Origin: an uncultured Chloroflexia bacterium
GTDB taxonomy: Bacteria > Chloroflexota > Dehalococcoidia > GIF9 > UBA5629
Direction of reading: 5' to 3'
Length of the DNA stretch: 64,000 nt
Assembly (NCBI GenBank): GCA_963842805.1
Contig: CAWJIA010000011.1
Span: 23,649 to 87,648, forward strand
Both the position numbers and the translations under genes were made by a program. The first letter of the stretch is position 1, and every line of letters begins with the position of its first letter. Of the stretch, positions 10,194 through 29,432 are shown in pieces. A model generated the notes under the pieces. That model saw only the letters and a list, made by a program, of their open reading frames with translations. It was not told the origin of the DNA and did not search any database.

Positions 10194-10976
10194 TTAATTA
10201 TTGTTCAAATCTACAGATTTTAGCATCTTGTGCTCTTTATCTGTTAGTAAAGCCTTATTCAACAGGTCCGGCCGTCTGCTGGCGGTCCGCCTCAGGCTCT
10301 CCGCTCGACGCCAATCTGCAATCTCTTTATGATTACCCGATAGCAATACGTCGGGCACTTTCCAACCTCTGTATTCCGGCGGCCTGGTGTATTGAGGATA
10401 TTCCAGCAGGCTCTCTATATGGGACTCTTCTGCCAGTGAAGTACTTGAACCGATAGCACCGGGCAACAGCCTCACCAGGCAATCTATGATCACCATAGCC
10501 GCGACCTCGCCGCCGCTCAATAAATAATCCCCGATACTGATCTCGTCTGTAGCCAGGTGCTGGGCAACCCTCTCATCTATGCCCTCATAGTGGCCGCATA
10601 TCAATATTATATTGCTTTCCTCAATGAGCTTACCTGCCAGTTCCTGCGTAAACAACCTTCCCTGGGGAGTCAGCAGAATAATACGACAATCAGCTGCCTG
10701 ATTTTCAGTTTTTACGAATTCGACTGCTTCAAATATGGGGCCTGGTTTCATGACCATCCCCGCTCCCCCACCATAGGGATAGTCATCCACCGTATTATGC
10801 TTATCATGCGTAAAATCCCTAATATTATGTAATCTTATATCTACGACCTGCTTTTCGGCAGCTCTGCCGATAATGCTGTGCGCCAGATATCCCGAAAAAG
10901 CCTCAGGGAAGAGTGTCAATACATAAATACGTAACACGGGTGCAATCGTCCGTATATACCTAAAATAGCAAACCAT
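10194..10976 (-). CDS. trmD: tRNA (guanine37-N1)-methyltransferase
   Basis: [44 protein letters not shown] motifs; true start may be internal GTG near 10937 ([12 protein letters not shown]). Confidence 0.9.
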
Positions 10977-11177
10977 TCTACCATACCTGTATTAAACCAC
11001 AAAATTTAACTTCAGGCTTTTACCTTTTATATATATATGTGAATATCCGGACCATCTGGCACAATATATTGTGTTTTTACTCCCATACAACCATTTATCT
11101 GGTGTTTTTCAAAATAAGTCGCTATTTTTTACACCAAAATCGCTAAAAATTACCGAAGTTTTTTGGCTGATTAGCTA

Positions 11178-11207
11178 TTGACAAGTGGGGTAAAAAGTGT
11201 CCATAAT
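11178..11207 (+). promoter_or_regulatory. Sigma-70-like promoter for the division cluster (TTGACA-18-CATAAT)
   Basis: TTGACA at 11178-11183, 18-nt spacer, CATAAT at 11202-11207, upstream of first ORF of the mraZ cluster. Confidence 0.45.
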
Positions 11208-11230
11208 GGTGAATAGTGGTAAAAAGTGGT
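11185..11230 (+). promoter_or_regulatory. GTGG(G/T) direct-repeat array (candidate MraZ-binding repeats)
   Basis: GTGGGG 11185, GTGT 11197, GTG 11209, GTGGT 11216, GTGGT 11226; the last two exactly 10 bp apart; overlaps the -10 region. Confidence 0.35.
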
Positions 11231-11248
11231 AAATAAGGGGAAAAGGAT

Positions 11249-11614
11249 ATGGCATTTAATTATTGTTGCGAGAACATGGTGGGGCCAGATCTTTTCTCGT
11301 TTATAAAAGAAAATGGTTTTACGGGATTGAAATTGAGACTTTTATTTTTCTGGGGGAAGCACCCTCATACTAAATTCGATCTGGATTGCATTGCACACTT
11401 TCTGGATATCACGCGTTATCACCTGCGTGACATCATCAAGGATTTAATCGATAAAGGAGTGATTAATGAACAATATTGCTCTAATGGAACGGCTCATTAC
11501 TCACTAAACCAGGAGAACGAAACAACCAAGTACATTGGTGAATTGGCCAGCCTCGATTGGAGCATCTTGAATAATATGCTTGGAACGATTGAAAGAGAAG
11601 CCCTTCCGGTATAA
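11249..11614 (+). CDS. Hypothetical small protein, possible winged-helix DNA-binding fold, first gene of mraZ cluster
   Basis: 121 aa with good RBS (aaggggaaaagga); segment FDLDCIAHFLDITRYHLRDIIKDLIDKGVINEQ...HYSL resembles wHTH; no assignable family. Confidence 0.45.
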   Translation: MAFNYCCENMVGPDLFSFIKENGFTGLKLRLLFFWGKHPHTKFDLDCIAHFLDITRYHLRDIIKDLIDKGVINEQYCSNGTAHYSLNQENETTKYIGELASLDWSILNNMLGTIEREALPV

Positions 11615-11637
11615 CAACTCCGTCAGGTTAGTTAATT

Positions 11638-12066
11638 ATGTTTGTTGGCGAATACGAATACAAGGTCGATAACAAGGGTCGTCTGCCTTTGCCACCCAAA
11701 TTCCGCAAAGACATTGATGATGGGCTTGTGCTTACCATGGTGGCGGATAACTGTATCACGGCCTACACCAGGGATGACTGGGCCAAGATGACCACCAACC
11801 AGGCCCCGACCGGGTTCCTCATGTCTGATAAGGCAAGGAAGATAAACCGTTTTATCTTCAGCAATGCCAACGAAGTCACGATAGATAATCAGGGCAGGAT
11901 ATCCCTGCCTTCAATGCTGAGGGAAAGATGTGGTATCTCCGACAGTGCCTCTATCGCCGGCGTAAACAACTATTTTGAAATTTGGAATCCGGAACACTGG
12001 AAGAAAGAAAGGATTTCCTCGGACGACGCAAGTCAAATAATGGACATTCTTGAGGAGAAGAAATGA
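11638..12066 (+). CDS. mraZ: Division/cell-wall cluster transcriptional regulator MraZ
   Basis: 142 aa; duplicated DxxGR motifs (VDNKGRLPLP and DNQGRISLP). Confidence 0.9.
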   Translation: MFVGEYEYKVDNKGRLPLPPKFRKDIDDGLVLTMVADNCITAYTRDDWAKMTTNQAPTGFLMSDKARKINRFIFSNANEVTIDNQGRISLPSMLRERCGISDSASIAGVNNYFEIWNPEHWKKERISSDDASQIMDILEEKK

Positions 12067-12998
12067 GCTTAACGTTAGAGAGAATGGTCCACACGCCGGT
12101 GCTGATCACAGAGGTCATTCAGGGGCTGGACGTGATGCCGGGGAAGCGATATGTCGACTGTACTTTAGGCGGTGGCGGCCATTCAACAGCCATACTGTCC
12201 AAATGCCAGCCCGGTGGTGAGTTGCTGGGTATAGACTCGGACCCTGAGGCCATTCGGATCGCACAACACAACCTCTATAACTATTTCGAAAGCACTATGA
12301 TCGTTAATGACAACTTCTATAACCTGGAGCAAATTTGCACGGAGACCCGTTTTATGCCGGTAGATGGTATTTTATTCGACCTGGGCCTTTCTTCCCTTCA
12401 GCTTTCCAGCGATGAACGTGGATTCAGTTTCCAGCGCAGCGGCCCGCTCGATATGAGGTTCAACCCCGATGAGCAGCTCACGGCTGCCGACATCGTCAAC
12501 AAAATGCCCGAGTCCAAGCTGGCCCAGCTCATACTTATCTACGGTGAGGAGTCTTACGCCAATCGGATAGCCAGCAATATCGTCAGGCACAGGCCGATAT
12601 CGGGTACGGCCGAACTGGCCGCCATCGTTTCCAGTTCAGTTGGCGACCGCTATACCAAGATTCATCCGGCTACCAGGACCTTTCAGGCCCTGCGCATAGC
12701 CGTCAACCGGGAACTGGATCACCTTACCTCCGCCCTCGACCAGAGCCTTAAATGCCTGGCCCCGGGGGGCAGGCTAGCGGTCATCAGCTACCATTCATTG
12801 GAAGACCGTATAGTCAAGAATTTCATGTTACGAGAAACCAGGTCCTGCATATGTCCCAGCAATATACCCGAATGCCGCTGCCATCACCAGCAGCAAATCA
12901 CCCTGATAAACAGGCATCCCATTACCCCGGCTGAAACCGAAATCGAAATAAACCCGCGCAGCAGGAGCGCCAAGCTCCGCATAGCGCAAAGATTATAA
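12063..12998 (+). CDS. rsmH: 16S rRNA (cytosine1402-N4)-methyltransferase
   Basis: HTPVLITEV...YVDCTLGGGGHS...FDLGLSS...GGRLAVISYHSLEDRIVK motifs; overlaps mraZ stop by 4 bp. Confidence 0.9.
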   Translation: MSLTLERMVHTPVLITEVIQGLDVMPGKRYVDCTLGGGGHSTAILSKCQPGGELLGIDSDPEAIRIAQHNLYNYFESTMIVNDNFYNLEQICTETRFMPVDGILFDLGLSSLQLSSDERGFSFQRSGPLDMRFNPDEQLTAADIVNKMPESKLAQLILIYGEESYANRIASNIVRHRPISGTAELAAIVSSSVGDRYTKIHPATRTFQALRIAVNRELDHLTSALDQSLKCLAPGGRLAVISYHSLEDRIVKNFMLRETRSCICPSNIPECRCHHQQQITLINRHPITPAETEIEINPRSRSAKLRIAQRL

Positions 12999-13222
12999 AA
13001 ATAGCAGGAGGCACGGAAAATGATACAAGCAAGCAGATTCGGCACCATTCTTAATAGGGATGGGAAACTCCTGGCAATATTCAGCGGCATGGTTTTTGAC
13101 GGCATCGTTTTCATCAGCCTGATAATCGCTATTGCCATACTTTACTTCTTATAGCGTGTATTAATTTACTCACCAGGAAATTTAGCAGTTAAGTATCACT
13201 AAATCGAAGGAGGCATGGATAA

Positions 13223-14449
13223 ATGACAAAAAGGTTAATCACCGGCATCGATGTAGGTACAACTAAGATTTGTACAATAGTTGCCACCCTTGATTCCGGC
13301 GGTGCCCTGCAGGTACTTGGGGTCGGCCAGGTACCTTCCCATGGTTTACACAAAGGCATGGTTGTCAACGTTGATGAAGCCAGAGATTCGGTTGCCGAAT
13401 CGGTCAAACGTGCTGAACAGGCCAGCGGTGTCAAGATCGAGTCAGCCTACATCGGCGTAACCGGCAGGCACATCAGTTCGGTCAATAGTCATGGCGTCGT
13501 GGCTATACCCCGAACCGACCGCCTTGTCAGGCAGGACGACCTGTCACGTGTTCTGTCATCTGCCAAGAACATCAACATCCCCGATGACAGAAAAATCCTT
13601 CACCAGATCCCCAGGGGTTACAGTCTGGACACCCAGGAAAAAATCAAGAACCCGGTCGGCATGCATGGGTTCAGGCTGGATGTCGAAACCCATATCATCA
13701 CCGCTTCCACTGCTTCTGTGCAGAACCTGGTTAAATGTGTTCGTAGCGTTGGTGTGGAAATCGACGACCTGGTGCTCGAACCACTGGCCAGCGGCGAGTC
13801 GGTACTTACGCCGGAAGAAAAAGAGATCGGCGTAATCATGGCAGATATCGGCGGAGGTACCACTGACATCGCCGTATTTAAGGACGGCAGTATTTATCAC
13901 ACCTCCATCATACCCGTGGCCGGCTACCAGTTCACAAGCGACCTGTCGATCGGTCTAGGTCTGCCCTTTGAAATCGCAGAAGCGATGAAGAAGAAGTACG
14001 GCAATGTTTACCCTGAGACGGGTCAGAAAGACGAGGGTTCCACCCTGACGGTGGAAGATGGACACAGCGTTTCCTACAAAGACCTTTGCAACATACTTCG
14101 GGACCGCATGGAAGAGCTGCTCAGGCTTATCTTACTGGAAATGCCGGATACCAGCTATGCATCGCTGGCCCCTGCCGGACTGGTAATGACCGGAGGTGGA
14201 TCCAAGATGAACGGCCTGGAAGCTCTCGCCCGCGGCACCATCCGCATCCCCACCAGGATAGGAGAACCAATGGGAGTCTATGGTATTACTGATGTGCTGC
14301 ATGACCCGGCCAACGCTACCGGCGTGGGTCTTCTCCTCTGGGCCATCAAGACCGGAGGAAAGCCCACATGGGAATCGAAGGGCGGCGACGCCAGAACCAG
14401 CCAGGTAAGCAACGTCATGGGCATGCTCAAGAAATTCTTTAGTGCCTGA
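13223..14449 (+). CDS. ftsA: Cell division protein FtsA
   Basis: 408 aa actin-fold protein: GIDVGTTKICTIVA, DIGGGTTDIAVF, MTGGGSKMNGL; immediately precedes ftsZ. Confidence 0.9.
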   Translation: MTKRLITGIDVGTTKICTIVATLDSGGALQVLGVGQVPSHGLHKGMVVNVDEARDSVAESVKRAEQASGVKIESAYIGVTGRHISSVNSHGVVAIPRTDRLVRQDDLSRVLSSAKNINIPDDRKILHQIPRGYSLDTQEKIKNPVGMHGFRLDVETHIITASTASVQNLVKCVRSVGVEIDDLVLEPLASGESVLTPEEKEIGVIMADIGGGTTDIAVFKDGSIYHTSIIPVAGYQFTSDLSIGLGLPFEIAEAMKKKYGNVYPETGQKDEGSTLTVEDGHSVSYKDLCNILRDRMEELLRLILLEMPDTSYASLAPAGLVMTGGGSKMNGLEALARGTIRIPTRIGEPMGVYGITDVLHDPANATGVGLLLWAIKTGGKPTWESKGGDARTSQVSNVMGMLKKFFSA

Positions 14450-14488
14450 TAATAAACATTTTTGAAATAGCAGGAGGTTTTAGAAAGT

Positions 14489-15601
14489 ATGTCGAAATCA
14501 ATGTTCTCAACAGCACCAGCTAAGATCAAAGCCATAGGCTGCGGCGGTGGCGGCTCAAATGCTATCACCCGCATGGTCCGCGAGGGGATCAAGGGCGTCG
14601 AATTCATCTGTATGAATACTGATGCGCAGGCATTAGCCCTGGCAGAGGTCCCGGTTCGCGTCCAACTCGGTGAAAAACTCACACGCGGGCTTGGCGCAGG
14701 CGGCGACCATAATGTCGGCAGGAAATCGGCCGAAGAAAGCCGTCAGGCGATCCAGGAAGTGGTATCCGGCGCTGACATGGTATTCATCACAGCAGGCATG
14801 GGTGGCGGCACCGGCACAGGCAGCATCCCTGTAGTGGCTGAAGTTGCCAGGTCATCCGGCGCTCTGACCATTGCCATCGTGACCAAACCGTTTGCCTTCG
14901 AAGGCGCAAGGCGCATGAAGGTAGCCGAAGAGGGTATCCTGCAGCTTTGCGACAAGGTAGACACCCTAGTCATCATCCCCAACGACCGCATAATCGAGCT
15001 CTGCGACAACAAAACCACAGTCGACAACGCTTTCCGGTTGGCTGATGATGTGTTGAAGCTGGGCGTGCAGGCTATTGCTGAAGTGGTAACCGTCCCTGGC
15101 CTTATCAACCTGGATTTCGCTGACATCAGGGCCATCATGAAGAACTCCGGACCGGCATGGATGTCTGTTGGCCACGGCAAGGGTTCCAACAGGGCGGTAG
15201 AGGCAGCCAAGGCGGCCCTGGCCAGCCCGATGCTCGACGTTTCTATCAGCGGCGCCAAAGGCGTACTATTCAACGTGACCGGCGGCAGCAGCCTGACGCT
15301 TTTCGAATGCAACGAGGCGGCTGACGTAATTGCCCAATCAGTCGATCCCGACGCCAACATCATATTCGGCGTGGTCTTCAATTCTCAGCTTGAGGATGAA
15401 GTCCAGATCACTATCATAGCTACCGGGTTCACCGCACAGTATGGTTCCGGGGTTCCAACCGAGGTGGAACTGCGCAGACTGTTGCGTGGAGCAACCGAAG
15501 ACAGCCTTGATGTTCCTTCATTCCTGAGAAGAGGATCGCGTTATCCCAATGCCCAATCGGGGGCACCCCGCCAGTCAGATTTTAGCAGAATGCCTCGCTA
15601 A
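14489..15601 (+). CDS. ftsZ: Cell division GTPase FtsZ
   Basis: [19 protein letters not shown] tubulin signature, ATGFT; 370 aa. Confidence 0.95.
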
Positions 15602-15633
15602 CAAAGTGTAGATCGATTAATGCATCGGACCCA

Positions 15634-15670
15634 AAGAGGTCGGAGAAATTTCTCCGACCTCTTTTATTAT
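15634..15670 (+). terminator. Rho-independent terminator after ftsZ
   Basis: aaagaggtcggagaaatttctccgacctcttt perfect hairpin followed by tattat T-rich tract. Confidence 0.7.
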
Positions 15671-15683
15671 GTATTGTTAGCCA

Positions 15684-15737
15684 TTGACTCCTACTATATC
15701 TTGTGCTAGTATCCTTCTACACCACACAGTGTAGTGT
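15684..15737 (+). promoter_or_regulatory. Promoter (TTGACT-17-TAGTAT) plus NrdR-box-like palindrome abutting nrdR start
   Basis: TTGACT 15684-15689, TAGTAT 15707-15712; palindrome ACACcACACaGTGTaGTGT at 15719-15737 (16/19 symmetric), resembles NrdR operator (ACAC..GTGT type). Confidence 0.45.
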
Positions 15738-16283
15738 TTGATGATGAAGTGCCCTTCTTGCGGAGAGATGGAATCTAAGGTGATAGATTCGCGAAGCCTT
15801 GGTGATGAAATACGGAGGCGTCGTGAATGTATTAAATGCAGGGAGCGCTTCACGACTTATGAGAGGATCCAGAACAGGGGCCTCTACGTAATCAAGAAAG
15901 ACGGCAGAAGGGAAGATTTCAATCGTGAGAAATTGTTTTCAGGCATACGCAAAGCCTGTGAGAAGCGTCCCATGCCGACTGGGACAATTGAAAAACTGGT
16001 CGAGACAATCGAAACCGACCTGTATCGCCTCGGCAAGACTGAGGTCCCCAGCTCGCTGATAGGGAAGATAATCGTCAGCAAACTGGCCGACATAGACCAC
16101 ATCGCATATATCAGATTCGCCAGTGTTTACTATGAGTTCTCGGATATAACCACTTTAAAGCAAGCGGTGGATACTCTGATCGAGAGCAAACACGGGGCAC
16201 CTCTGGACGGCCAGTTGCCCCTGATAAATCCCAGGGAAGCCGCAGGGCAAAAACGCAGAAGCAAGAAACAGCAACGTGGTTAA
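15738..16283 (+). CDS. nrdR: Transcriptional repressor NrdR (zinc ribbon + ATP cone)
   Basis: MKCPSCG...CIKC zinc ribbon followed by ATP-cone (VIKKDGRREDFNREKL...); real start likely ATG at 15741 or 15744. Confidence 0.9.
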   Translation: MMMKCPSCGEMESKVIDSRSLGDEIRRRRECIKCRERFTTYERIQNRGLYVIKKDGRREDFNREKLFSGIRKACEKRPMPTGTIEKLVETIETDLYRLGKTEVPSSLIGKIIVSKLADIDHIAYIRFASVYYEFSDITTLKQAVDTLIESKHGAPLDGQLPLINPREAAGQKRRSKKQQRG

Positions 16284-18888
16284 TAAGCAATCGAAGAATT
16301 ATCTATCGGACCCAATGCGCAATTACGTTGCGAAGACCGTCTTTACATACATGCAGACACTGGGGTTGGCCGACAGGCATCAGCAGGAAGACCTGACAGA
16401 GCAAGTAATTTTGAGGTTGGAGAAGAGTATGTCTCTTGAAGAACACACAAAAACTAAAAAAGTGGAACGCACTTTCCCCGGTATGGAAAACCTCGTAGCT
16501 TCATTGGCTCCCCAACCGCCCGGCAAGGAACAGATAGAGTCCGTGGTCAATGAACTTCTGGCAGAGAAAGCCGGCTCAAAGGCCTCGGTAGAAAGCCCCC
16601 CTGTCACGCCTTCGGCCGCTCCTGTTATCGCGCCCGCCGCCAGTGAACTAAAGCTAACTGAGAATGCTCTGATAGTCCTGGAGAAAAGATACCTGCAAAA
16701 AGATGGCCAGGGAAATGTTATAGAGACTCCCGAAGAGTTGTTCCACCGGGTCAGCAGTTACATTGCTTCCGCTGAGCTTGTGTTTGATAAATCTGCCAGG
16801 ATTGCCGAGTGGGAAGCCAAATTCTACAGTCTCATGACGTCGCTGGAATTCCTGCCCAATTCACCCACTCTCATGAATGCTGGCCGCGAGCTGGGACAAC
16901 TATCGGCCTGCTTTGTGCTGCCAATCGATGACACCATGGAGTCAATCTTCGATGCCGTTAAATATACGGCTCTGATTCATAAAAGCGGTGGAGGAACAGG
17001 CTTTTCCTTCTCACGCATCAGACCCAAGAAGGACAGGGTAGGATCTACGGGAGGCGTCGCCAGCGGACCTGTCTCTTTCATGCGCGCCTTCGATACAGCA
17101 ACAGACGTCATTAAACAGGGTGGCATGCGCCGCGGCGCCAACATGGGCATATTGAATGTAGACCACCCGGATATCCTGGAATTCATCTCATCCAAGGAAG
17201 ACCTGAAAGCATTTACGAATTTCAACATCTCGGTAGCTATTACCGACCATTTTATGAAGGCTGTGGAGCAGAATACAGACTACGATCTGATCAATCCGCA
17301 TAACAAGGAGGTTGTGGGCAAGCTTAACGCCAGGGAGGTCTTCAGCAAGATAGTAGACATGGCATGGAGAACAGGCGACCCCGGCGTAATCTTCCTGGAC
17401 AGGATAAATGAATCTAACTCAACTCCCAATCTGGGCAAAATAGAAAGCACCAACCCCTGCGGTGAACAACCTCTGTTGCCATATGAATCATGCAATCTGG
17501 GATCGATCAATTTATCAAGGATGGTCAAACGGGTCAACAGCCATAGCGAAATAGACTATGATAAGCTCAGGGAGGTTATCAAGCTGGCCGTGAGATTTCT
17601 GGATGATGTGATCGAGGTCAATAAGTTCCCTCTGCCCCAGATCGGGGAGATGACCCGTAAAACCCGCAAGATCGGGCTGGGGGTGATGGGTTTCGCCGAC
17701 ATGCTTATGCAGTTGCAGATACCATACAACTCGGATAGGGCGCTTGAAACTGCCGAGAGGGTAATGCGTTTCGTTTCGGAAGAAGCCAGTAAGGAATCCG
17801 AATCGCTAGGAAGGTCCAGGGGAACCTTCCCTGCTTTCAACGGCAGCATATATGACACCAGGAACGGACCCAGGGTGAGAAATGCCAACAGGACCACCAT
17901 CGCTCCTACCGGCACCTTAAGCATTATAGCCGGTTGCTCCAGCGGTATCGAGCCGATATTCGCCTTAAGTTACTTCCGCCATATACTCGACGGGCAGACA
18001 TTAATAGAGATCAACCCCTATTTTGAAGAAGCGGCAAAGAAGGATTGTTTCTATTCAGCCGATCTCATGAAAAAGCTGGCGGAGGGAGGGAAATTAAATG
18101 ACATTCCGTCAGTGCCCGCGCAGGTCAAGGATGTTTTTGTAACCTCGCATGACATCTCGCCCGAATGGCATGTGAAAATCCAGGCTGCCTTCCAGAAATA
18201 TACAGATAGCGCCGTTTCCAAAACGGTGAACCTGCCTCACGAAGCTACCGTAGAAGACGTGCAAAACGTTTATCTGATGGCTTACAAGCTGGGATTGAAA
18301 GGTATCACAATTTACAGAGACAGGAGCCGCGACAGCCAGGTATTGAATACGGGCCAGAAAGAACCCGTTACAGAAAAGGAAAAGAGGACGGACAATGAAG
18401 CCGAGGCCGAAGCCAGGCTTTCTCCTCGCCAGAGGCCCAAGATCACCAGGGGCATTACTGAGCGTGTAACCACTGGGTGCGGTTATATTTATGTGACCGT
18501 CAATTTTGATGATAAGGGAATATGTGAAGTTTTTTGCAGCCTGGGTAAAGCCGGAGGCTGTGCTTCCGCACAGCTTGAAGCTACCAGTCGGCTCATTTCG
18601 CTTATTTTCAGATCGGGCATCGATGTCAGCTCAGTCATAAAACAGCTGCGAGCCATCAGATGCCCTTCCGTTTCCTGGGAGCACGGACGTGCCATATTAT
18701 CCTGCGCAGATGCTATCGGCAGCGTATTGGAAAAATACGTAAAAAAAGATGATGACATCGTGCCCATAAAAAGTATCAGCCAGTCTACCGGAAGCTCTAC
18801 CGGGCAATGCCCCGACTGCGGAAATCTGCTTGTTTATCAAGAGGGCTGTCACATTTGCCCGAGTTGCGGCTATACTAAATGCGGATGA
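16276..18888 (+). CDS. nrdJ: Adenosylcobalamin-dependent (class II) ribonucleoside-triphosphate/diphosphate reductase with ~110-aa N-terminal extension and C-terminal zinc ribbon
   Basis: Conserved class II core (FLPNSPTLMNAG, SACFVLP, GGGTGFSFSRIRP, NPCGEQPL, ...TIAPTGT); C-terminal CPDCG...CPSCG; start may be a downstream Met (e.g. MSLEEH) because the annotated start overlaps nrdR. Confidence 0.85.
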   Translation: MVNKQSKNYLSDPMRNYVAKTVFTYMQTLGLADRHQQEDLTEQVILRLEKSMSLEEHTKTKKVERTFPGMENLVASLAPQPPGKEQIESVVNELLAEKAGSKASVESPPVTPSAAPVIAPAASELKLTENALIVLEKRYLQKDGQGNVIETPEELFHRVSSYIASAELVFDKSARIAEWEAKFYSLMTSLEFLPNSPTLMNAGRELGQLSACFVLPIDDTMESIFDAVKYTALIHKSGGGTGFSFSRIRPKKDRVGSTGGVASGPVSFMRAFDTATDVIKQGGMRRGANMGILNVDHPDILEFISSKEDLKAFTNFNISVAITDHFMKAVEQNTDYDLINPHNKEVVGKLNAREVFSKIVDMAWRTGDPGVIFLDRINESNSTPNLGKIESTNPCGEQPLLPYESCNLGSINLSRMVKRVNSHSEIDYDKLREVIKLAVRFLDDVIEVNKFPLPQIGEMTRKTRKIGLGVMGFADMLMQLQIPYNSDRALETAERVMRFVSEEASKESESLGRSRGTFPAFNGSIYDTRNGPRVRNANRTTIAPTGTLSIIAGCSSGIEPIFALSYFRHILDGQTLIEINPYFEEAAKKDCFYSADLMKKLAEGGKLNDIPSVPAQVKDVFVTSHDISPEWHVKIQAAFQKYTDSAVSKTVNLPHEATVEDVQNVYLMAYKLGLKGITIYRDRSRDSQVLNTGQKEPVTEKEKRTDNEAEAEARLSPRQRPKITRGITERVTTGCGYIYVTVNFDDKGICEVFCSLGKAGGCASAQLEATSRLISLIFRSGIDVSSVIKQLRAIRCPSVSWEHGRAILSCADAIGSVLEKYVKKDDDIVPIKSISQSTGSSTGQCPDCGNLLVYQEGCHICPSCGYTKCG

Positions 18889-18921: not shown

Positions 18922-20343
18922 ATGGATGCCACTGAAAATCGCTGTTCTCTTGCATTCAAGCAGATAGCTAAAGTAGTCAACAGTGATTTACCTTTAAAGA
19001 AAATAATGGGACTGATTGCCGCCAGCGCAGCGCGAGCTTTGCAAGCTTCAGGCTGTGCTATTATGCTGCTCAACCCCCAGCGTGAATATCTGGATATCAT
19101 CGGCGCTTTCGGATTGAGTGACATCTACTTACGCAAAGGAGCCTTGAACGCTCGTAAAAGCTACCCTGAGATCCTGGACGGCAAGACTGTCGCTGTTGAA
19201 GATATTATCGTCGATAAAAGGACTCAGTTCCCCGAACAAGCAGCTAAGGAAAATCTGAAGTCGCTGCTGGGTGCGCCTATTTTGCAGAAAGAGGAGGTAA
19301 TAGGGGAGATCAGGATTTACACCCATGAAAAAAAGCATTTCAAACCTCATGAGAAAGACTTCATTGCCACCGTGGCTAATATCATTGCGGTGACAGTGGG
19401 AAAAAACGAATTGTACCAGTACTTAAATACACATCATGAGACCAATGTCACACAGCAGAAGAAACTCACCAGTTTCTCCCACCTTCCTTTGAAGCCGGTG
19501 CGTCCGACCAGTTTCAGCCACCCCAGTGAAGAAGAGTTTGCCAGGTTGCTGGATTTTTACCAGGTGGAATGGCTTTACGAGCCACGTTCATTTCCATTGT
19601 CCTGGGAAGCTAACAGAATCACCGAGATGTTCACGCCGGATTTCTATCTGCCTGAGATAGATTTATATATCGAATTGACAACTTCCAGACAAAGCCTTAT
19701 CACAGAGAAGAACCATAAGCTGCGCCAGCTCAAAGAACTGTATCCGGATGTCAACGTAAAACTGCTCAATAAAGCCGATTACCTAAAGCTTTTTGTAAAA
19801 TACGATTTTATACCCCTGGGCGAAAACAAGATGAACGGCGTGCAAAAATACCTGTTCAATAAAACGCAGCTCGACAGGCGCGTAAAGTCGCTGGCCAAGC
19901 AGATATCGAAAGATTATCATGGGAAGGACCTTATTCTTATTGGCATTCTTAAAGGGGTCATATGTTTTATGTCGGACCTGATGCAGAATATATCCATACC
20001 CCTTGAATGCGATTTTATGGCGATATCCACTCCCCAGGGCAAATCCGATTCGCTAATTAAAATAACTAAAGACCTGGATATTGATATCAGAGGCAAGCAC
20101 GTATTGATGGTGGAAGATATAATCGATACGGGAATGACCTTGAACTACGTATTAAACTACCTTGCGACACGCAAGCCGGCGAGTTTAAAAGTGTGCACAC
20201 TTTTAGATAAGAGGGTTAGGCGCTTAATCGATGTACATCTCGACTATATCGGATTCGAGATACCGGACGAGTTTGTCGTGGGCTACGGCCTGGATGTCAG
20301 GGGGAAATACCGCAACTTACCCTTCATAGCGATTTTGGAATAA
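18922..20343 (+). CDS. hpt: Three-module fusion: N-terminal GAF domain, central PD-(D/E)xK-like (DUF559/Vsr-like) module, C-terminal hypoxanthine phosphoribosyltransferase
   Basis: C-terminal 175 aa match HPRT (LILIGILKGVICFMSDL..., VLMVEDIIDTGMTL PRPP motif, VVGYGLDVRGKYRNLPFI); N-terminus GAF-like (KIMGLIAASAARALQASGCAIMLL...IGEIRIYTHE); middle region EEEFARLLDFYQVEWLYEP...PDFYLPEIDLYIELT. Confidence 0.7.
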   Translation: MDATENRCSLAFKQIAKVVNSDLPLKKIMGLIAASAARALQASGCAIMLLNPQREYLDIIGAFGLSDIYLRKGALNARKSYPEILDGKTVAVEDIIVDKRTQFPEQAAKENLKSLLGAPILQKEEVIGEIRIYTHEKKHFKPHEKDFIATVANIIAVTVGKNELYQYLNTHHETNVTQQKKLTSFSHLPLKPVRPTSFSHPSEEEFARLLDFYQVEWLYEPRSFPLSWEANRITEMFTPDFYLPEIDLYIELTTSRQSLITEKNHKLRQLKELYPDVNVKLLNKADYLKLFVKYDFIPLGENKMNGVQKYLFNKTQLDRRVKSLAKQISKDYHGKDLILIGILKGVICFMSDLMQNISIPLECDFMAISTPQGKSDSLIKITKDLDIDIRGKHVLMVEDIIDTGMTLNYVLNYLATRKPASLKVCTLLDKRVRRLIDVHLDYIGFEIPDEFVVGYGLDVRGKYRNLPFIAILE

Positions 20344-20551: not shown

Positions 20552-21337
20552 TCAGGCTCCGGGCACCAGTAAAGCTATAAACAAATATATTTCCCTGCCC
20601 CACACCAAAGTCACCAGCGTACCCAAAGCCAGGAATAATCCGAAGGAAACAGGCTCGGTAAGTTTCCTGAGTCTGAGTATTACCAGGACTATTGCGGTCA
20701 GGCCACCCGTCAAAACCGCCAGGTATATTGCTGCCATGACCAGGGGAAAACCCACCATAACGCCGATCAACCCTCCCATTACAACATCGCCCAATCCTAT
20801 GACTTCTTTTTTGAATAGCCTGGCTATGCACCAGATTAGAAAGAAAAATCCGAAGCCTGAGGCAAATCCGATAGCTGCATTGACTATATCGGGAGATAAG
20901 CCTGCGAGAGTTTTGACCAATGTAATTATCAGGGCAATCCCGATGGCTGGATAGATAATTATTCCCGGTAATAAACCGCTCTCCAGGTCGGTGATGGATA
21001 GTACTACCAGGATGGAGATGTAGAGTAGGACAACCGGCAACTGCCATTGCAGTCCCAATACGGCCCATGCCAGCACAAAGAGCAGCCCTGTCATCAGCTC
21101 TACCAGCATCGACCTTAATGCTATGCCGGCGCCGCAGTAACGGCACCTGCCCCTTAATACAACATAGCTGACAACAGGTATGAGATCTCTTGTTTCCAGT
21201 GGATGACCGCACTGGAAACAATGGGACGGGGGGGATATAATCGATTTATGCTGGGGCACCCGGTCCGCCACGACATTCAAAAAACTGCCGAAGCTAATGC
21301 CGATCAAGAAAAAAATAAGCGCTAAAACAATTTCCAA
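20552..21337 (-). CDS. pilD: Prepilin peptidase (A24 family)
   Basis: 261 aa polytopic membrane protein; N-terminal CxxC...CxxC zinc motif (CFQCGH...CRYCG) and conserved D-containing GLGDVVMGGLIG segment. Confidence 0.85.
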   Translation of the reverse strand: MEIVLALIFFLIGISFGSFLNVVADRVPQHKSIISPPSHCFQCGHPLETRDLIPVVSYVVLRGRCRYCGAGIALRSMLVELMTGLLFVLAWAVLGLQWQLPVVLLYISILVVLSITDLESGLLPGIIIYPAIGIALIITLVKTLAGLSPDIVNAAIGFASGFGFFFLIWCIARLFKKEVIGLGDVVMGGLIGVMVGFPLVMAAIYLAVLTGGLTAIVLVILRLRKLTEPVSFGLFLALGTLVTLVWGREIYLFIALLVPGA

Positions 21338-21342
21338 GTGAT

Positions 21343-23814
21343 TTAATTACTTCTGTGTATTTTTGATTCTTTATCCATCAAGCCGCTGACGATTTCTTGT
21401 CCTTCGGTTTGAAATCCGCTTCCATTGTTCAACATAGCATCAACGACGCCTGCCAACAAGGTAATATCCTCGTCCGGTACAATTGCGGCCGATTTCTTAA
21501 AGGCCTGAACGGAGCCCTGGTAGTCCCCACCGTAGATATCGGAAATACCCAACAACATATATCCCTTCCAGTTGACTCCGTCACTATCAATGCGGGATTT
21601 TAAAGCACCGATTACCGAATCTATTTCACCAGCCCTGTAAGTGTTCAATACACTGCAAAAGTTCATATAGTAGGTTACATCTTTCACATCATCCTTAATA
21701 GGCGTGATAAGAAAATCAGCCGCCGCCCGGTTATCGCCTCTATATATTTGCAGCAGTCCCTGAAAAAATGAGGTCTGTATCCACAGCGGGTCGCTCTTTG
21801 TAGAGTCAGCTAATTTCTGTTCCGCAGCTTGATGATCTCCTTTGAAAATCAGCGCCAGCGCCCATTTGTTTAAAATCACCGGATTGGCCGGGAATATCCG
21901 GTCGGCTTTCTCATATAGGCCAAGGGCATCATTAAATTTGTCTTTATTACCGTTCAGAGCCCAGTAGACGTCCACATCAGCCAGCCTGTAATACCAGATA
22001 GCCATGGCCGGGTCCACGCGGATAGCCTCCTTGTAAGCTGACTCACTGAGGGAGAGCAGTTTTAACTGCTCTTGGGGGTCCTTGCTCTCTTGAGCCATCA
22101 TATAAGCCAGGTTGCCCAGGAAGTTCTGATAGTAAGATTGCTGGGGTTCAATCCTTACCGCCTCGCTATACATGGCCATAGCAGCATTCTTATCTTTGTT
22201 ATATAGGCTGAGGCCGCTCTCAACATAGGTATTAGCCAGTAACGGAGTGACGGTAAGGCCGGCTCCGATAATAATAAATATTGCAAATACTATCACTGCC
22301 ATGAATTTCCTTATCAGGCCGGGTCCTGTTCCCTCGGGTTTACACACTTCATTCAACATGCCGGCAGGCTGTTTGGGCAGGTTAATCTCTGCCGCGGAGT
22401 CGATTTTGATATTGGCCACGGTCAGCGCTAAAACCAGCCAGAACACCAGCTCCGGCGTGATAACCGACGGGTCGAAAAATACATGGGCACAGTATTGCAC
22501 AATGGCAGCAATGAAAGCCGACATAAGCAGAATTGAATCCCTTTCACCGCTTCGCAGCAGATATTTGAAGCCCATGTAGAAGAATATGCCTAGGATGACC
22601 AGGAAGGCCAGCAATCCCAGGATGCCCAGGGTCAGTGCCAGGTACAGATAATGGTTTTCGGGCTGCGAGATAACCAGCGACCCAAAGGTATATGTGCCTT
22701 TCCAGGCGGGAGGAAACCTGGTCTGTGACACGGCTATGAACGTTTCGGGCCCATATCCGATGAGGCGCCGTAAGCCGTGCAGATTATCCTGCAGATAGGG
22801 TATTTCAGGTGACTGAGTAATTACTTCGAGGGCGCACTGCCAGGTCTGTAAACGGATAGGCAACGTTCCCAGCCCAACCTGTTCGGCAACTGTGGCGCCG
22901 GGATTGCGGCTCTCGCCGGGTGCAACGCCGTTTTGTGGAACCAGCATCTGCCCCAGCAGTACGGCAGCAATAATGCCAACCAGTACGAGGGAAAAAATGC
23001 TGAGGGCCAGAGTTGCCCTCCTCTGCAGGAAAATCCCCGCTAACACAAAGAAAGCGAAAATCCCTATTATGAATAGCAGCAGGGTGATGGAATATTGCGC
23101 CAGTGCCAGGCAACACATCTGCAGGACAAATACCACCAGCAGGCCGATGAACCTGACCCACTTCCGGGTTCTGGACAACGGCGCATACCAGGTCAGTACG
23201 ATTAAAGCCAGCGTGACCGGCAAAATCATGGCTATGAAACCGCTTAACGATAGTGGGTTGCCGTCTATAGATACTACCCTGCCGCCCAATAAACCCCACG
23301 GCGCAAGGAAAAATTGCACTATGCCGATCAAACAAACTATGGCTGAAGATATCACCAGCGCATACAGGGCACGGTAAACCTGTTGGCGTGATCTTACTTT
23401 CTGTGACAGGATCAGGAAAAAGATGATCCAGGATATATTGGGGAGCAAGCCTACACTGCCCGCCAAATTCCCCCAGAGGCTCTTATAGGGCATGATGGAA
23501 CAGGCGGTCGATATCATCCATATCAAACCGAAGACCAGTACCGCAACCTGCAGCGGCGATGATTTTACTCTATCAGTTAAGTCCCTCCAACTAATTTCAT
23601 GCTTCCGGAGCAGCCACTGAGCCAGCGCCAGGCCCAGTAATGCGCACACCAGGAAAACCAGTGTAAGCGATTTAACAAAATAATAGGGGTCGAGGCAAAA
23701 AGGATCGTAAGCAAGGGGAACCAGGAAGATCGTCAGCAGCCAGATACATTCGATGGCTGTCTCCAGCCTGCCAAACAATTTGCTGCTTCGATTGCTGATC
23801 AATTCCATTAGCAT
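21343..23814 (-). CDS. Polytopic membrane protein with Wzy_C/O-antigen-ligase-like core and C-terminal TPR-repeat domain
   Basis: 823 aa; ~12 predicted TM helices in first ~470 aa, then soluble repeat domain with TPR-like helical periodicity (AYKEAIRVDPAMAIWYYRLA..., ALGLYEKADRIFPANP...); sits between prepilin peptidase and pilin. Confidence 0.5.
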   Translation of the reverse strand: MLMELISNRSSKLFGRLETAIECIWLLTIFLVPLAYDPFCLDPYYFVKSLTLVFLVCALLGLALAQWLLRKHEISWRDLTDRVKSSPLQVAVLVFGLIWMISTACSIMPYKSLWGNLAGSVGLLPNISWIIFFLILSQKVRSRQQVYRALYALVISSAIVCLIGIVQFFLAPWGLLGGRVVSIDGNPLSLSGFIAMILPVTLALIVLTWYAPLSRTRKWVRFIGLLVVFVLQMCCLALAQYSITLLLFIIGIFAFFVLAGIFLQRRATLALSIFSLVLVGIIAAVLLGQMLVPQNGVAPGESRNPGATVAEQVGLGTLPIRLQTWQCALEVITQSPEIPYLQDNLHGLRRLIGYGPETFIAVSQTRFPPAWKGTYTFGSLVISQPENHYLYLALTLGILGLLAFLVILGIFFYMGFKYLLRSGERDSILLMSAFIAAIVQYCAHVFFDPSVITPELVFWLVLALTVANIKIDSAAEINLPKQPAGMLNEVCKPEGTGPGLIRKFMAVIVFAIFIIIGAGLTVTPLLANTYVESGLSLYNKDKNAAMAMYSEAVRIEPQQSYYQNFLGNLAYMMAQESKDPQEQLKLLSLSESAYKEAIRVDPAMAIWYYRLADVDVYWALNGNKDKFNDALGLYEKADRIFPANPVILNKWALALIFKGDHQAAEQKLADSTKSDPLWIQTSFFQGLLQIYRGDNRAAADFLITPIKDDVKDVTYYMNFCSVLNTYRAGEIDSVIGALKSRIDSDGVNWKGYMLLGISDIYGGDYQGSVQAFKKSAAIVPDEDITLLAGVVDAMLNNGSGFQTEGQEIVSGLMDKESKIHRSN

Positions 23815-23879
23815 CTATAGCGGGACATGCGCTGTTTTTCACTTATTATACTATGCCGCGGGCAACTTTGGATTATACC

Positions 23880-23912
23880 AAAATGTGACCTTAGTACTAT
23901 GAAAATGTGACC
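23880..23912 (+). promoter_or_regulatory. Two direct repeats AAAATGTGACC spaced 22 bp, just upstream of pilin promoter
   Basis: exact 11-bp repeats at 23880-23890 and 23902-23912. Confidence 0.4.
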
Positions 23913-23921
23913 AATTGGCTA

Positions 23922-23949
23922 TTTACATTACGATCGGGGTCGGTATAAT
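23922..23949 (+). promoter_or_regulatory. Putative pilin promoter (TTTACA-16-TATAAT)
   Basis: TTTACA 23922-23927, TATAAT 23944-23949; strong RBS aaggagg before ATG 24039. Confidence 0.45.
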
Positions 23950-24038
23950 TGAATCGTAGGACAAAAATGGGATCAGAAGATTAACGTAGCCGGTCAGGTC
24001 GATCCGGCTTGTTGAGCAGCTAATTAAGGAGGTAACTT

Positions 24039-24344
24039 ATGAAATTATTTAAATCAGCACAAAAGGGTTTTACGCTAATCGAGTTGTTGGTGGTCATTTC
24101 CATCCTGGGTGTGCTCGCCGCTGTGGTAATACTGAACGTTACCAAGTACATGAGCGCTGGTAAGGAGCAGGCTGCGGCAACCGAGCTGGCCAATGTACAG
24201 ACGGCAGTATCAGCCTATATGTATGACAACACCGGCGCCGTCCCGTCCGGTCAGGCGGCACTATCCCCCTATTTCCTGGGCTCGCCGCATGGAACCTATT
24301 CCATTGACACGTACGGCAAGGTAACCCAGACATCCTACCCGTAA
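24039..24344 (+). CDS. pilA: Type IV major pilin (prepilin-type N-terminal cleavage/methylation domain)
   Basis: 101 aa; leader MKLFKSAQKG followed by FTLIELLVVISILGVLAAVV class III signal peptide. Confidence 0.85.
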   Translation: MKLFKSAQKGFTLIELLVVISILGVLAAVVILNVTKYMSAGKEQAAATELANVQTAVSAYMYDNTGAVPSGQAALSPYFLGSPHGTYSIDTYGKVTQTSYP

Positions 24345-24373
24345 AAACAATCAGCTAACGTAATCCGGATATA

Positions 24374-24416
24374 AAAGAGAGCGTGGACTAAAATCCACGC
24401 TCTCTTTATGCTGTTT
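24374..24416. terminator. Bidirectional rho-independent terminator between pilin (+) and pilT (-)
   Basis: aaagagagcgtgga-ctaaaa-tccacgctctcttt 14-bp perfect stem, T-runs on both strands. Confidence 0.75.
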
Positions 24417-24423
24417 TCATGCT

Positions 24424-25494
24424 TCATGGAAACCCATTATCCGACCTCAATATTTTGTTTATATCGTCTGCATCCTGGCAGAAGGCATATACCGATTCCC
24501 GCGATATTACCTTTTTCCTGAACAGGTCTACCAGCGCGTCATCCAGCGTCTTCATCCCCAGATTGGCGCTGGTGCGAATGGTGTTGGGAATCAGGAAAGG
24601 TTTCCCCTCCCTGATAAGGTTTTTAACAGCCGCGGTGGCCAGCATGATTTCCACGGCAGCCACACGTCCTCCGCCTATACGCGGCACCAGCACCTGGCAG
24701 AAAACCGCCAGTAGCGTTGATGCCAGCCTGGCCTGGGCCATCTGCCTCTCATGGGGCGGGAACAGGTCCACAATCCTCTCAACGGATTGGGCTGCGCTGG
24801 GAGCATGCCCGGTGGATAGCACCAGATGGCCTGTTTCGGCTACGGTCAGGACGGCGGAGGCCGTCTCAAGGTCCCTCATTTCACCTACCAGTATCACATC
24901 CGGGTCCTGCCTCAGCACATACTTTAAAGCATTAACGAACGAATGTGTATCCTGATCGAGCTCCCTCTGTGAGAAGGCGCATTTAAGGCCGGGGTGAACG
25001 TATTCGATAGGGTCTTCGATGGTAACGACATACCTCTGCAGCGAGTGGTTAAGGTGATTGAACATAGCAGCAATGGTCGTGCTTTTACCTGAGCCGGTGG
25101 GGCCGGTAACCAGTATCAGGCCCCTGGGACGTATTATCAGCTCCTTGGCAATATCCGGCAGCCCGATCTCTTCTACCGTCGGTATATGGTCCGACAAAAT
25201 ACGTATGGCCAAACTGATCGAGCCCTGCTGCCAGCAGGCATTACACCGGCCGCGCCCACCACCGGGAAGCTCATGCGCAAAATCAACTTCCAGCTCGCTC
25301 TTTAACAAATCCCTCAAATGCGTATTCGCGACCTGGTGAAAGAGGCGCTCTATTTCCTCGCCCGCCATGATCCCGAACTCGGGGAACGGCTTTAACTCGC
25401 CGTCAATCCTCAATATGGGAGGTACGCCTGCTACCAGATGGAGGTCGGAGCCTTTTTTATCTTGTGCCAGCTTTATCAAATCCTGGATATTCAT
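24424..25494 (-). CDS. pilT: Type IV pilus retraction ATPase PilT
   Basis: 356 aa; Walker A GPTGSGKST, ...GHLVLST, PilT-type AIRNLIRE-like motif (AVKNLIREGK). Confidence 0.9.
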   Translation of the reverse strand: MNIQDLIKLAQDKKGSDLHLVAGVPPILRIDGELKPFPEFGIMAGEEIERLFHQVANTHLRDLLKSELEVDFAHELPGGGRGRCNACWQQGSISLAIRILSDHIPTVEEIGLPDIAKELIIRPRGLILVTGPTGSGKSTTIAAMFNHLNHSLQRYVVTIEDPIEYVHPGLKCAFSQRELDQDTHSFVNALKYVLRQDPDVILVGEMRDLETASAVLTVAETGHLVLSTGHAPSAAQSVERIVDLFPPHERQMAQARLASTLLAVFCQVLVPRIGGGRVAAVEIMLATAAVKNLIREGKPFLIPNTIRTSANLGMKTLDDALVDLFRKKVISRESVYAFCQDADDINKILRSDNGFP

Positions 25495-25528
25495 CTATGG
25501 CCTTTGGATCTCCTTGAGGTTCTGCTTT

Positions 25529-26938: not shown

Positions 26939-26953
26939 TTTTTCATGACGTTC

Positions 26954-27553: not shown

Positions 27554-27638
27554 TTCTATTTATTCCTACCAGCCTATTGCGCATATTATACATTAAATAA
27601 GTCTGTTTTAACCCGTCTCTCTATTTTAACAGAGTATC

Positions 27639-29422: not shown

Positions 29423-29432
29423 ATTATGTAAT

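Follow-up and report, generated by a model that had tools for sequence, protein, structure and literature searches.

The locus is very probably a reduced dcw operon of an uncultured member of the Dehalococcoidia that probably comes from peat, a remnant left after an ancestor of the wall-less Dehalococcoidales/SAR202 lineages lost the genes that separated rsmH from ftsA. Because this layout has already been described for wall-less Dehalococcoidia and for mycoplasmas, the window (the whole 64-kb stretch of DNA that was analyzed) is an ordinary new example of it. Its additions are modest and specific to the lineage: a small gene, orf121, which follows the MraZ operator and precedes mraZ, and a conserved 44-amino-acid peptide, orf44, in the ftsL slot (Table 1).

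Table 1. Features of the reduced division operon, in positions of the window
Feature	Position	Strand	Basis or description
Pmra, predicted sigma-70-type promoter	11178..11207	+	TTGACA, 18-nt spacer, CATAAT
MraZ operator, predicted GTG(G/T)-type boxes	11185..11239	+	sequence reading
orf121, predicted MarR-like winged-helix fold	11249..11614	+	121 aa, first gene of the operon
mraZ, division-cluster transcriptional regulator	11638..12066	+	PF02381 E=9e-28; TIGR00242 99.0 bits
rsmH (mraW), 16S rRNA m4C1402 methyltransferase	12063..12998	+	TIGR00006 350.9 bits; PF01795 E=1.8e-109
orf44, predicted membrane micro-protein, 44 aa	13020..13154	+	conserved ORF, ribosome-binding site
ftsA, actin-like membrane tether for FtsZ	13223..14449	+	TIGR01174 390.8 bits; PF14450; PF02491 (SHS2/1C)
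ftsZ, tubulin-like GTPase	14489..15601	+	TIGR00065 406.6 bits; PF00091; PF12327
Intrinsic terminator	15633..15664	+	14-bp stem, 4-nt loop, U-rich tail

The original prediction had placed an mraZ-rsmH-ftsA-ftsZ cluster at 11178 to 15601, and the genes were found there, 11178 being the start of the Pmra -35 element and 15601 the ftsZ stop. All six genes lie on the plus strand between the promoter and the terminator. The identities of mraZ, rsmH, ftsA, and ftsZ rest on curated HMMs that scored above cutoff; for mraZ the TIGR00242 cutoff was 98.35 bits, and the PF02381 match is split over two stretches. RsmH, the gene for which shares 4 nt with the end of mraZ, has the GGGGHS SAM motif, and the FtsZ sequence has GGGTGTG. 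FtsZ ends in the peptide LDVPSFLRR followed by a 22-amino-acid basic tail, both kept in relatives, and the C terminus of FtsA is the amphipathic segment VSNVMGMLKKFFSA, the character of which is also kept. Judged from these sequences, LDVPSFLRR is the predicted FtsA-binding C-terminal peptide, and FtsA retains its putative C-terminal amphipathic helix.

The promoter that had been proposed for the cluster matches the consensus at 11 of 12 positions and is the best promoter-like site within 10900 to 16400. Related loci (L003, L005, L006, L007, L087, L089, and L090) have an equivalent TTGACA promoter ahead of their MraZ boxes. These features suggest that Pmra functions as a promoter. Two of the boxes lie within its spacer (GTGG at 11185 and GTGT at 11197), and those that follow (ATGG at 11206, GTGG at 11216, GTGG at 11226, and AGGG at 11236) run in exact 10-nt phase over the -10 element and the transcript start. 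The boxes match the published MraZ consensus of GTG(G/T) boxes with a 6-nt separation (PMC12957436), with the irregularities that the first two are 12 nt apart, not 10, and that ATGG and AGGG are imperfect. The pattern RTGGK-N5-RTGGK-N5-RTGGK occurs once in the 64 kb compared with 0.01 occurrences expected, and phased boxes are likewise present in relatives. MraZ carries both DNxGR motifs, and its K13, R15, and R87 correspond to residues Lys13, Arg15, and Arg86 that are reported to contact DNA in Mycoplasma genitalium MraZ (PMC12957436). Thus read, the sequence is consistent with MraZ binding to these boxes. At the other end of the operon, the terminator has a predicted RNA fold of -23.9 kcal/mol (z-score, -5.96), and the gene downstream, nrdR (15738 to 16283), has its own promoter-like site at 15684 to 15712.

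The small winged-helix ORF of the original prediction is borne out by structural modeling. The AF2 model of orf121 (pLDDT 81.5) has the topology H-H-H-H-E-E-H-H, and the best fold matches in a Foldseek search of the PDB were MarR-family regulators throughout, headed by PefR (7dvt), YusO (1s3j), ZitR (5yi1), and MepR (3eco), with TM scores of about 0.5 to 0.6 and E values of about 1e-3. The model shares with these proteins the winged-helix core, the beta-hairpin wing, and the flanking helices. MarR proteins are typically about 140 to 150 amino acids long, whereas orf121 has 121, and orf121 has no significant sequence match to MarR or Rrf2 models; its best hit in Pfam or NCBIfam, where nothing passed the default thresholds, was Rrf2 (E=0.06 to 0.11). 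Nine homologue clusters with 54 to 88% identity are always upstream of mraZ, and the orf121 profile comprises 157 representatives. The orf121 product is probably a second DNA-binding regulator with a MarR-like winged-helix fold, as modeled. The RMSD to MarR structures is high (5 to 10 A), so dimerization geometry and ligand sensing are not inferable from the comparison.

The expectation that ftsA and ftsZ directly follow rsmH was correct in that no wall or divisome gene intervenes, but it overlooked orf44, the sole content of the 225-bp gap between rsmH and ftsA. This ORF, which occupies the usual ftsL position, is preceded by a GGAGG Shine-Dalgarno sequence 8 nt upstream and encodes a basic N terminus and a C-terminal transmembrane segment (hydropathy, 2.3 to 2.6 over residues 17 to 44). 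It is called as a gene in L001, L083 to L088, and two further contigs, and 22 homologue clusters, almost all 44 amino acids long, have 65 to 95% identity. We suggest that orf44 is a lineage-specific, tail-anchored membrane peptide and a candidate component of the operon.

It is possible, although somewhat doubtful, that orf121 and orf44 are passenger or spurious ORFs and that the functional unit is the four known genes alone. Neither matches a curated family in Pfam or NCBIfam; orf121 is missing from the related MAG loci L003 and L005 to L008, and orf44 was not found in L003 to L008. Distant members of the orf121 family are in unrelated contexts (L092 and L093), and a codon comparison of the window with L083 gave synonymous-to-nonsynonymous counts that were close to even for orf121 (16:15) and for orf44 (8:6), compared with 66:6 for ftsA. 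However, both ORFs retain length, frame, and ribosome-binding sites despite substantial divergence. For example, orf44 in L087 is unchanged in length and ribosome-binding site at 70% protein and 74% DNA identity, and 17 columns, F26-D27-G28 among them, are invariant over 23 orf44 sequences. The fold predicted for orf121 is a confident winged helix, and in other lineages (L089 and L090), homologues only 39 to 48% identical still have the MraZ boxes on one side and mraZ on the other.

The mur, fts, and ddl genes that the original prediction reported as absent are indeed missing from the locus. In a comparison of all ORFs of the 64 kb that encode at least 80 amino acids with Pfam and/or NCBIfam, no Mur ligase, MraY, MurG, FtsW/RodA, PBP/FtsI, FtsQ/DivIB, FtsL, or Ddl was found. 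A split dcw cluster alone is no proof of peptidoglycan loss, and one possibility is that the organism makes peptidoglycan, with the mur, mraY, ftsW, and ftsI genes elsewhere in the genome, in which case the four-gene adjacency would be uninformative about the wall. The inspection for mur, mraY, ftsW, and pbp genes covered the 64-kb window and stretches of about 20 kb in relatives, and gene order near ftsZ varies in the Chloroflexota, as exemplified by an Anaerolineae locus (L038) with mraZ directly upstream of ftsZ. Nevertheless, we consider this quite unlikely. The reduced cluster is kept by 5/5 of the nearest species representatives among the matches listed (L003 to L007) and by every contig of the orf121/orf44 clade, whereas wall-bearing Chloroflexota in the same scan, which served as a control, retain mur genes beside ftsA. 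Furthermore, Pfam scans found no peptidoglycan-binding domain in the proteins of the window, and an HMM survey of Dehalococcoidia orders is reported to link the reduced cluster to dcw gene loss (PMC10608941). It is barely credible that an error of assembly or binning, through a chimeric join or a collapsed deletion between rsmH and ftsA, created the adjacency. The sequence is of metagenome type, and a near-identical ENA contig (L001) has frameshifts in priA, ftsA, and hpt, but independent ENA, JGI, and NCBI assemblies have the junction, together with orf44 and its ribosome-binding site, at about 74 to 99% nucleotide identity, and more distant MAGs also have rsmH adjacent to ftsA. Recurrence of the arrangement in independent contigs (L001, L083 to L088, and L090) and MAGs effectively refutes chance or an assembly artifact.

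The value of the cluster as a taxonomic indicator was upheld by its relatives. The nearest genomes among the matches listed are Dehalococcoidia or Dehalococcoidales MAGs with 61 to 70% FtsZ identity and identical synteny (priA-rplS-trmD<>mraZ-rsmH-ftsA-ftsZ-nrdR-nrdJ), and the orf121 and orf44 homologues come from MAGs with the NCBI source name 'Dehalococcoidia bacterium'. FtsZ similarity, synteny, and record names suggest placement in the wall-less Dehalococcoidales/SAR202 clade. From lineage and synteny, the host would be expected to lack peptidoglycan.

A model for the reduced dcw operon is that the ancestor of the wall-less Dehalococcoidales/SAR202 lineages lost the genes for peptidoglycan synthesis and the late divisome that had lain between rsmH and ftsA. 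The single sigma-70-type promoter would yield one transcript, orf121-mraZ-rsmH-orf44-ftsA-ftsZ, ending at the strong hairpin terminator, and MraZ on the phased boxes over spacer, -10 element, and start site may repress its own operon. RsmH would methylate C1402 of the 16S rRNA. FtsZ would polymerize, and FtsA would bind its C-terminal peptide and anchor the filaments to the membrane via the amphipathic helix. Constriction would then proceed without septal peptidoglycan synthesis, beneath an S-layer-type envelope. FtsZ-driven constriction is not guaranteed in wall-less cells because ftsZ is reported to be dispensable in M. genitalium (PMC8475190).

The window also encodes a 1137-amino-acid protein that starts with a signal peptide, is anchored at its C terminus, and gives weak signals of the BNR/sortilin type. 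It is a candidate S-layer-type protein that fits an S-layer-type envelope (compare DET1407; PMC5102406).

The match to wall-less Dehalococcoidia that had been proposed agrees with the literature. Wiegand et al. 2023 (PMC10608941) report that D. mccartyi and every Dehalococcoidales and SAR202 genome in their study have mraZ, rsmH (mraW), ftsA, and ftsZ side by side, an arrangement that they liken to that of Mollicutes; D. mccartyi, Dehalococcoidales, and SAR202 are described as being without peptidoglycan genes (PMC10608941; PMC11994032). The window, likewise from the class Dehalococcoidia, has the same four genes adjacent on one strand with the intervening mur and fts genes missing. Its lineage is distinct from the species representatives among the matches listed, with FtsZ at most 70% identical, and it adds to the published cluster the MarR-like gene before mraZ and orf44 between rsmH and ftsA. 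Neither is mentioned in the consulted passages of the literature.

In the dcw clusters of wall-bearing Chloroflexota, ftsA and ftsZ are also at the distal end, and FtsA and FtsZ are homologous to those of the window (43 to 58% identity). However, the genes immediately upstream of ftsA are ftsW-murG-murC-murB (L026) or murB-ddl (L019) plus an unassigned ORF, where the window has rsmH and orf44. The Mollicutes, an unrelated phylum in which reduction was independent of that in Dehalococcoidia, are wall-less with the same four genes in the same order (for example, M. genitalium mraZ-mraW-MG_223-ftsZ; PMC8475190 and PMC12957436), and they share with the window phased GTG(G/T) MraZ boxes in the promoter and the DNA-contacting MraZ residues Lys13, Arg15, and Arg86/87 (PMC12957436). 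Unlike the Mollicutes boxes, which are wholly upstream, those of the window overlap and follow the -10 element, and the window operon has two extra small genes. The window FtsA is canonical and high scoring, with a 1C domain, whereas MG_223 is described as only a putative FtsA homologue (PMC12957436).

The division genes mraZ, rsmH, ftsA, and ftsZ were adjacent and co-oriented in the window. The open reading frame (ORF) listing and scans with curated HMMs (Pfam, NCBIfam) recovered every gene named in the original prediction on the plus strand and in the predicted order. The genes trmD, rplS, and priA were found upstream of the cluster on the opposite strand, and nrdR and the gene for a class II ribonucleotide reductase were found downstream. 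The order of the four division genes was kept in the related loci L001, L003 to L007, L083 to L088, and L090. The original prediction that rsmH is followed directly by ftsA was accurate for wall and divisome genes, which are absent from the 225-bp gap, but it overlooked the sole ORF within that gap, which encodes 44 amino acids (orf44). None of ftsL, ftsI, murE, murF, mraY, murD, ftsW, murG, murC, murB, ddl, or ftsQ was located between rsmH and ftsA. Furthermore, a scan of all window ORFs of at least 80 amino acids found no Mur enzymes, MraY, FtsW/RodA, penicillin-binding proteins, FtsQ/DivIB, FtsL, or Ddl. As a control, the same method detected mur genes immediately upstream of ftsA in two loci from wall-bearing Chloroflexota (ftsW-murG-murC-murB in L026 and murB-ddl in L019). 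Therefore, the method finds such genes where they are present. Rfam families and tRNAs, which were sought in the window as taxonomic or regulatory markers, were not found.

Features of the predicted division operon and its flanking control elements
Feature	Position	Strand	Evidence or description
Putative MraZ boxes within promoter spacer	GTGG 11185; GTGT 11197
Putative MraZ boxes across the -10 and likely start site	ATGG 11206; GTGG 11216; GTGG 11226; AGGG 11236		exact 10-nt phase
orf121	11249-11614	+	no family match at default thresholds
mraZ	11638-12066	+	PF02381, E=9e-28; TIGR00242, 99.0 bits (cutoff 98.35)
rsmH	12063-12998	+	TIGR00006, 350.9 bits
orf44	13020-13154	+	44-aa ORF in rsmH-ftsA gap
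ftsA	13223-14449	+	TIGR01174, 390.8 bits (cutoff 175.85); SHS2/1C domain
ftsZ	14489-15601	+	TIGR00065, 406.6 bits (cutoff 295.2)
Hairpin terminator	15633-15664		after ftsZ; 14-bp stem, U-rich tail; -23.9 kcal/mol, z = -5.96

The original prediction begins at 11178, which coincides with the -35 element of a promoter-like site (TTGACA, 18 nt, CATAAT) that has 11 of 12 matches and is the best of its region. An array of putative MraZ boxes spans 11185 to 11239, at the promoter of mraZ itself, with the GTG(G/T) box consensus taken from PMC12957436. The pattern RTGGK-N5-RTGGK-N5-RTGGK occurred once in the window versus 0.01 occurrences expected. MraZ matched PF02381 in two stretches and scored barely over the TIGR00242 cutoff. 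Both half-domains contain a DxxxR motif (DNKGR at residues 11 to 15 and DNQGR at residues 83 to 87). In the M. genitalium MraZ structure (PMC12957436), the box contacts are Lys13, Arg15, and Arg86, whose counterparts in the window protein are K13, R15, and R87. Past the terminator, nrdR has a separate promoter-like site of its own. Because of the promoter and box array, the terminator 3' of ftsZ, and the separate nrdR site, the unit is most likely a single MraZ-autoregulated transcript extending from approximately 11214 to 15664, for which we infer co-transcription and repression. The operon would represent a clean natural case of an MraZ operator, presumably bound by MraZ, over a six-gene unit.

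Between the divergent trmD and orf121 genes, roughly 105 nt before the division promoter, is another possible regulatory site. The sequence at 11059 to 11074 (GCACAATATATTGTGT) includes a 14-nt stretch, CACAATATATTGTG at 11060 to 11073, that is perfectly palindromic. This site fits the NrdR-box consensus (acaCwAtATaTwGtgt) in 15 of its 16 positions and is conserved across the clade (6570 in L001, 9813 in L083, and 918 in L087). A search for a partner box yielded weak matches only, none of them convincing. The NrdR box preceding nrdR is degenerate in the window (15692 to 15705) and good in L005, L007, and L087.

PF02491 (SHS2/1C) spans residues 81 to 160 of FtsA, and the C terminus of FtsA is an amphipathic segment (VSNVMGMLKKFFSA) that is predicted to be a membrane-binding helix and whose character is conserved in Dehalococcoidia relatives. 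FtsZ also matched PF00091 and PF12327 and contains GGGTGTG. Its C-terminal peptide, LDVPSFLRR, the established FtsA-binding motif of FtsZ, is conserved in L003, L005 to L008, and L087. The FtsZ peptide and the amphipathic FtsA end fit the standard picture in which FtsA would tether FtsZ filaments to the membrane, here with no wall-synthesis machinery encoded alongside. A 22-residue basic tail follows LDVPSFLRR in the window FtsZ. The tail was approximately 16 to 30 amino acids long and rich in arginine and lysine in all of the Dehalococcoidia FtsZ proteins examined (window 15536 to 15601, residues 350 to 370; L003, L005 to L008, and L087). In E. coli and B. subtilis, the FtsZ tail has only 4 to 6 residues, far fewer than in these Dehalococcoidia proteins.

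The gene that separates the MraZ operator from mraZ was described in the original prediction as a small wHTH ORF, and the predicted fold agrees with this description. Searches with the 121-amino-acid protein (orf121) against Pfam and NCBIfam gave Rrf2 (E=0.06) and HypR (E=0.14) as the best matches, far below the cutoffs. Homologues formed nine clusters at 54 to 88% identity, and a confident AF2 model based on an alignment of those homologues, which left out the one in the related locus L004, had a winged-helix topology (pLDDT 81.5, pTM 0.71). The top 50 Foldseek matches in the PDB were almost all MarR-family proteins, such as PefR, YusO, ZitR, and MepR, with TM scores of 0.5 to 0.6. For the family assignment, the sequence models gave nothing significant, and only the fold comparison was informative. 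Thus, the modeled orf121 protein resembles a MarR-type wHTH in fold, and assignment to the MarR family by sequence was rejected for want of a significant sequence-model match.

A profile search recovered 157 representatives of a wider orf121 family, with lengths of roughly 100 to 170 amino acids. Homologues at 39 to 48% identity (L089 and L090/L091) were again situated between an MraZ-box promoter and mraZ, and a weak homologue was found in the same place in L004. A more distant family member (L092/L093) is in an unrelated context. An association of the whole family with mraZ was therefore rejected: it holds at identities of at least 39% (L089 and L090) and fails for L092/L093. Because the distant member breaks the link, association with mraZ is a property of an orf121 subfamily. 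Among other relatives, L005 and L006 have no gene at the orf121 position, and in L003, L007, and L008 this position is taken by a MoaB/Mog-like gene on the other strand.

The overlooked gene, orf44, occupies the slot where ftsL normally sits. It is preceded by a GGAGG ribosome-binding site, and gene calling picked it up in all contigs of the clade. Its homologues formed 22 clusters, nearly all of them exactly 44 amino acids long, with 17 invariant columns that include an F-D-G motif. The hydrophobic segment of the protein extends to the C terminus. The L087 protein was 70% identical at a locus where the DNA was 74% identical. A search of the more distant relatives L003 to L008 did not find orf44. 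Comparison with Pfam and NCBIfam at E values up to 1 gave no match to FtsL/DivIC or any other family. The possibility that orf44 is FtsL or a remnant of it was rejected because both the ectodomain and an FtsL/DivIC match are absent. A role for orf44 in division can only be guessed at from its position.

In L003, L005, and L006, RsmH has a C-terminal extension of approximately 40 amino acids with the conserved motif W[KR]xPxLLxKLRQxF, a second copy of which is found in L005 as a separate 72-amino-acid ORF before ftsA (L003, 4751 to 4890; L005, 8254 to 8383 and 8439 to 8657; L006, 5563 to 5686). The window lacks this motif, and orf44 fills the gap there instead.

It is conceivable, if unlikely, that in one wall-less Dehalococcoidia clade the operon gained two dedicated parts: a MarR-like winged-helix regulator that adds a second layer to the control of the division genes, and the tail-anchored orf44 membrane peptide, which would act with FtsA and FtsZ, for example as an additional membrane anchor or modulator of a Z-ring that lacks septal wall machinery. 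If so, orf44 would constitute a small, new division factor found specifically in bacteria lacking peptidoglycan. The presence of orf121 in several lineages and of orf44 in one clade provides the only leads beyond the literature, and these would be of moderate interest if the proteins were shown to act in division.

The gene at 34422 to 37835 (plus strand) encodes a 1,137-amino-acid protein with an N-terminal signal peptide, weak BNR and Sortilin-Vps10 signals only, and a transmembrane anchor at the C terminus. This protein is a candidate S-layer or cell-surface glycoprotein, and its architecture fits an S-layer-type, wall-less envelope as a supporting detail. DET1407 of D. mccartyi is presumably a BNR-repeat protein. 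The window protein can be compared with DET1407, a putative S-layer protein (PMC5102406). Near the S-layer candidate is a 390-amino-acid ORF with no Pfam match (38481 to 39653, minus strand), beside which are two GT4 glycosyltransferase genes (39550 to 42148) and a Methyltransf_24 gene (37872 to 38528). Together, these genes may form a surface-glycosylation cluster.

A type IV pilus gene set at 20552 to 32729 (mostly minus strand) includes genes for a prepilin peptidase, a pilin (24039 to 24344), PilT, a PilM-PilN fusion (25529 to 26938), PilC, PilB, and several unassigned small proteins. No secretin was found in this set, as expected for a single-membrane cell. Adjoining it is a gene for an 823-amino-acid TPR protein with a weak Wzy_C match. 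The protein encoded at 32757 to 34118 (minus strand) has a TackOD1 (thaumarchaeal output domain 1) region with zinc ribbons and a C-terminal Mrr_cat restriction-endonuclease domain. Directly 3' of nrdR-nrdJ is a gene for a hypoxanthine phosphoribosyltransferase with an N-terminal GAF-type sensor domain (18922 to 20343, plus strand), a fusion kept in L083 to L088. The region from 52811 to 64000 (plus strand) encodes four tandem glycyl-radical (PFL-like) paralogues (54042 to 56459, 57390 to 59888, 59920 to 62361, and 62393 to the window end) with one radical-SAM activase among them (56483 to 57406), preceded by a gene for a 397-amino-acid protein with two TetR units (52811 to 54004).

A 106-kb ENA contig (L001, contig_35999) was nearly identical to the window. 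Its priA, ftsA, and GAF-HGPRT genes, which are intact in the window, are split by frameshifts that most likely represent assembly errors rather than biology. A sister species with approximately 90% nucleotide identity and identical gene order is represented by the NCBI MAG GCA_050011675.1 ('Dehalococcoidia bacterium') and by large contigs of two JGI metagenomes, which, judging by their sample names, probably come from peatland. In a scan of species-representative genomes with FtsZ, the best five among the matches listed (61 to 70% identity) were labelled as Dehalococcoidia, Dehalococcoidales, or Chloroflexota MAGs, and all five keep the arrangement priA-rplS-trmD<>mraZ-rsmH-ftsA-ftsZ. L005 to L007, whose contigs are long enough, also keep nrdR-nrdJ downstream. 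The NCBI records of orf121 and orf44 homologues are labelled 'Dehalococcoidia bacterium'. These labels and the full synteny bear out the suggestion that the cluster is a taxonomic indicator. Similarity, synteny, and record names suggest possible membership in the wall-less Dehalococcoidales/SAR202 clade of this class; a search of the PMC10608941 supplements for the nearest MAGs did not find their names. A different arrangement was observed in an Anaerolineae MAG (L038, 9522 to 11020), in which mraZ directly precedes ftsZ, and neither rsmH nor ftsA was matched in between. Division loci of Chloroflexota thus also include this kind of rearrangement.

The arrangement in the window is not an assembly artefact, as its recurrence in independent assemblies demonstrates. 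According to Wiegand et al. 2023 (PMC10608941), D. mccartyi has neither a dcw cluster nor a peptidoglycan layer, the four division genes sit side by side in this species and in every Dehalococcoidales and SAR202 genome examined in that study, as they do in Mollicutes, and basal Dehalococcoidia (Tepidiformales, UBA6077) keep the dcw genes. SAR202 genomes are also described as lacking peptidoglycan genes, ftsW, and ftsI (PMC11994032). The match to wall-less organisms in the original prediction is well founded, in that the layout equals the published Dehalococcoidia pattern (PMC10608941, PMC11994032). We consider it likely that the organism from which the window derives lacks a peptidoglycan wall. 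The absence of wall genes covers the 64-kb window and the approximately 20-kb neighborhoods of its relatives, a scope with which a split dcw cluster, with peptidoglycan genes elsewhere in the genome, would be compatible; such a split appears improbable.

The interpretation of the cluster as that of a wall-less organism is supported and has already been published, and the window adds one more example, from a lineage that is uncultured. To a specialist, this reduced cluster is precisely what Dehalococcoidia should show. The cluster is a reliable marker of a Dehalococcoidia lineage, one that very probably relies on only FtsZ and FtsA for division and has an envelope of protein, not peptidoglycan. 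It could be used for annotation and for picking organisms for work on FtsZ division that is independent of a wall. The division cluster of Mollicutes is well studied (PMC8475190, PMC12957436). The window shares its adjacent, co-oriented mraZ, rsmH, ftsA, and ftsZ with the reduced dcw cluster of Mollicutes and of Dehalococcoidales and SAR202, in contrast to the wall-bearing Chloroflexota loci L026 and L019, in which wall genes directly precede ftsA.
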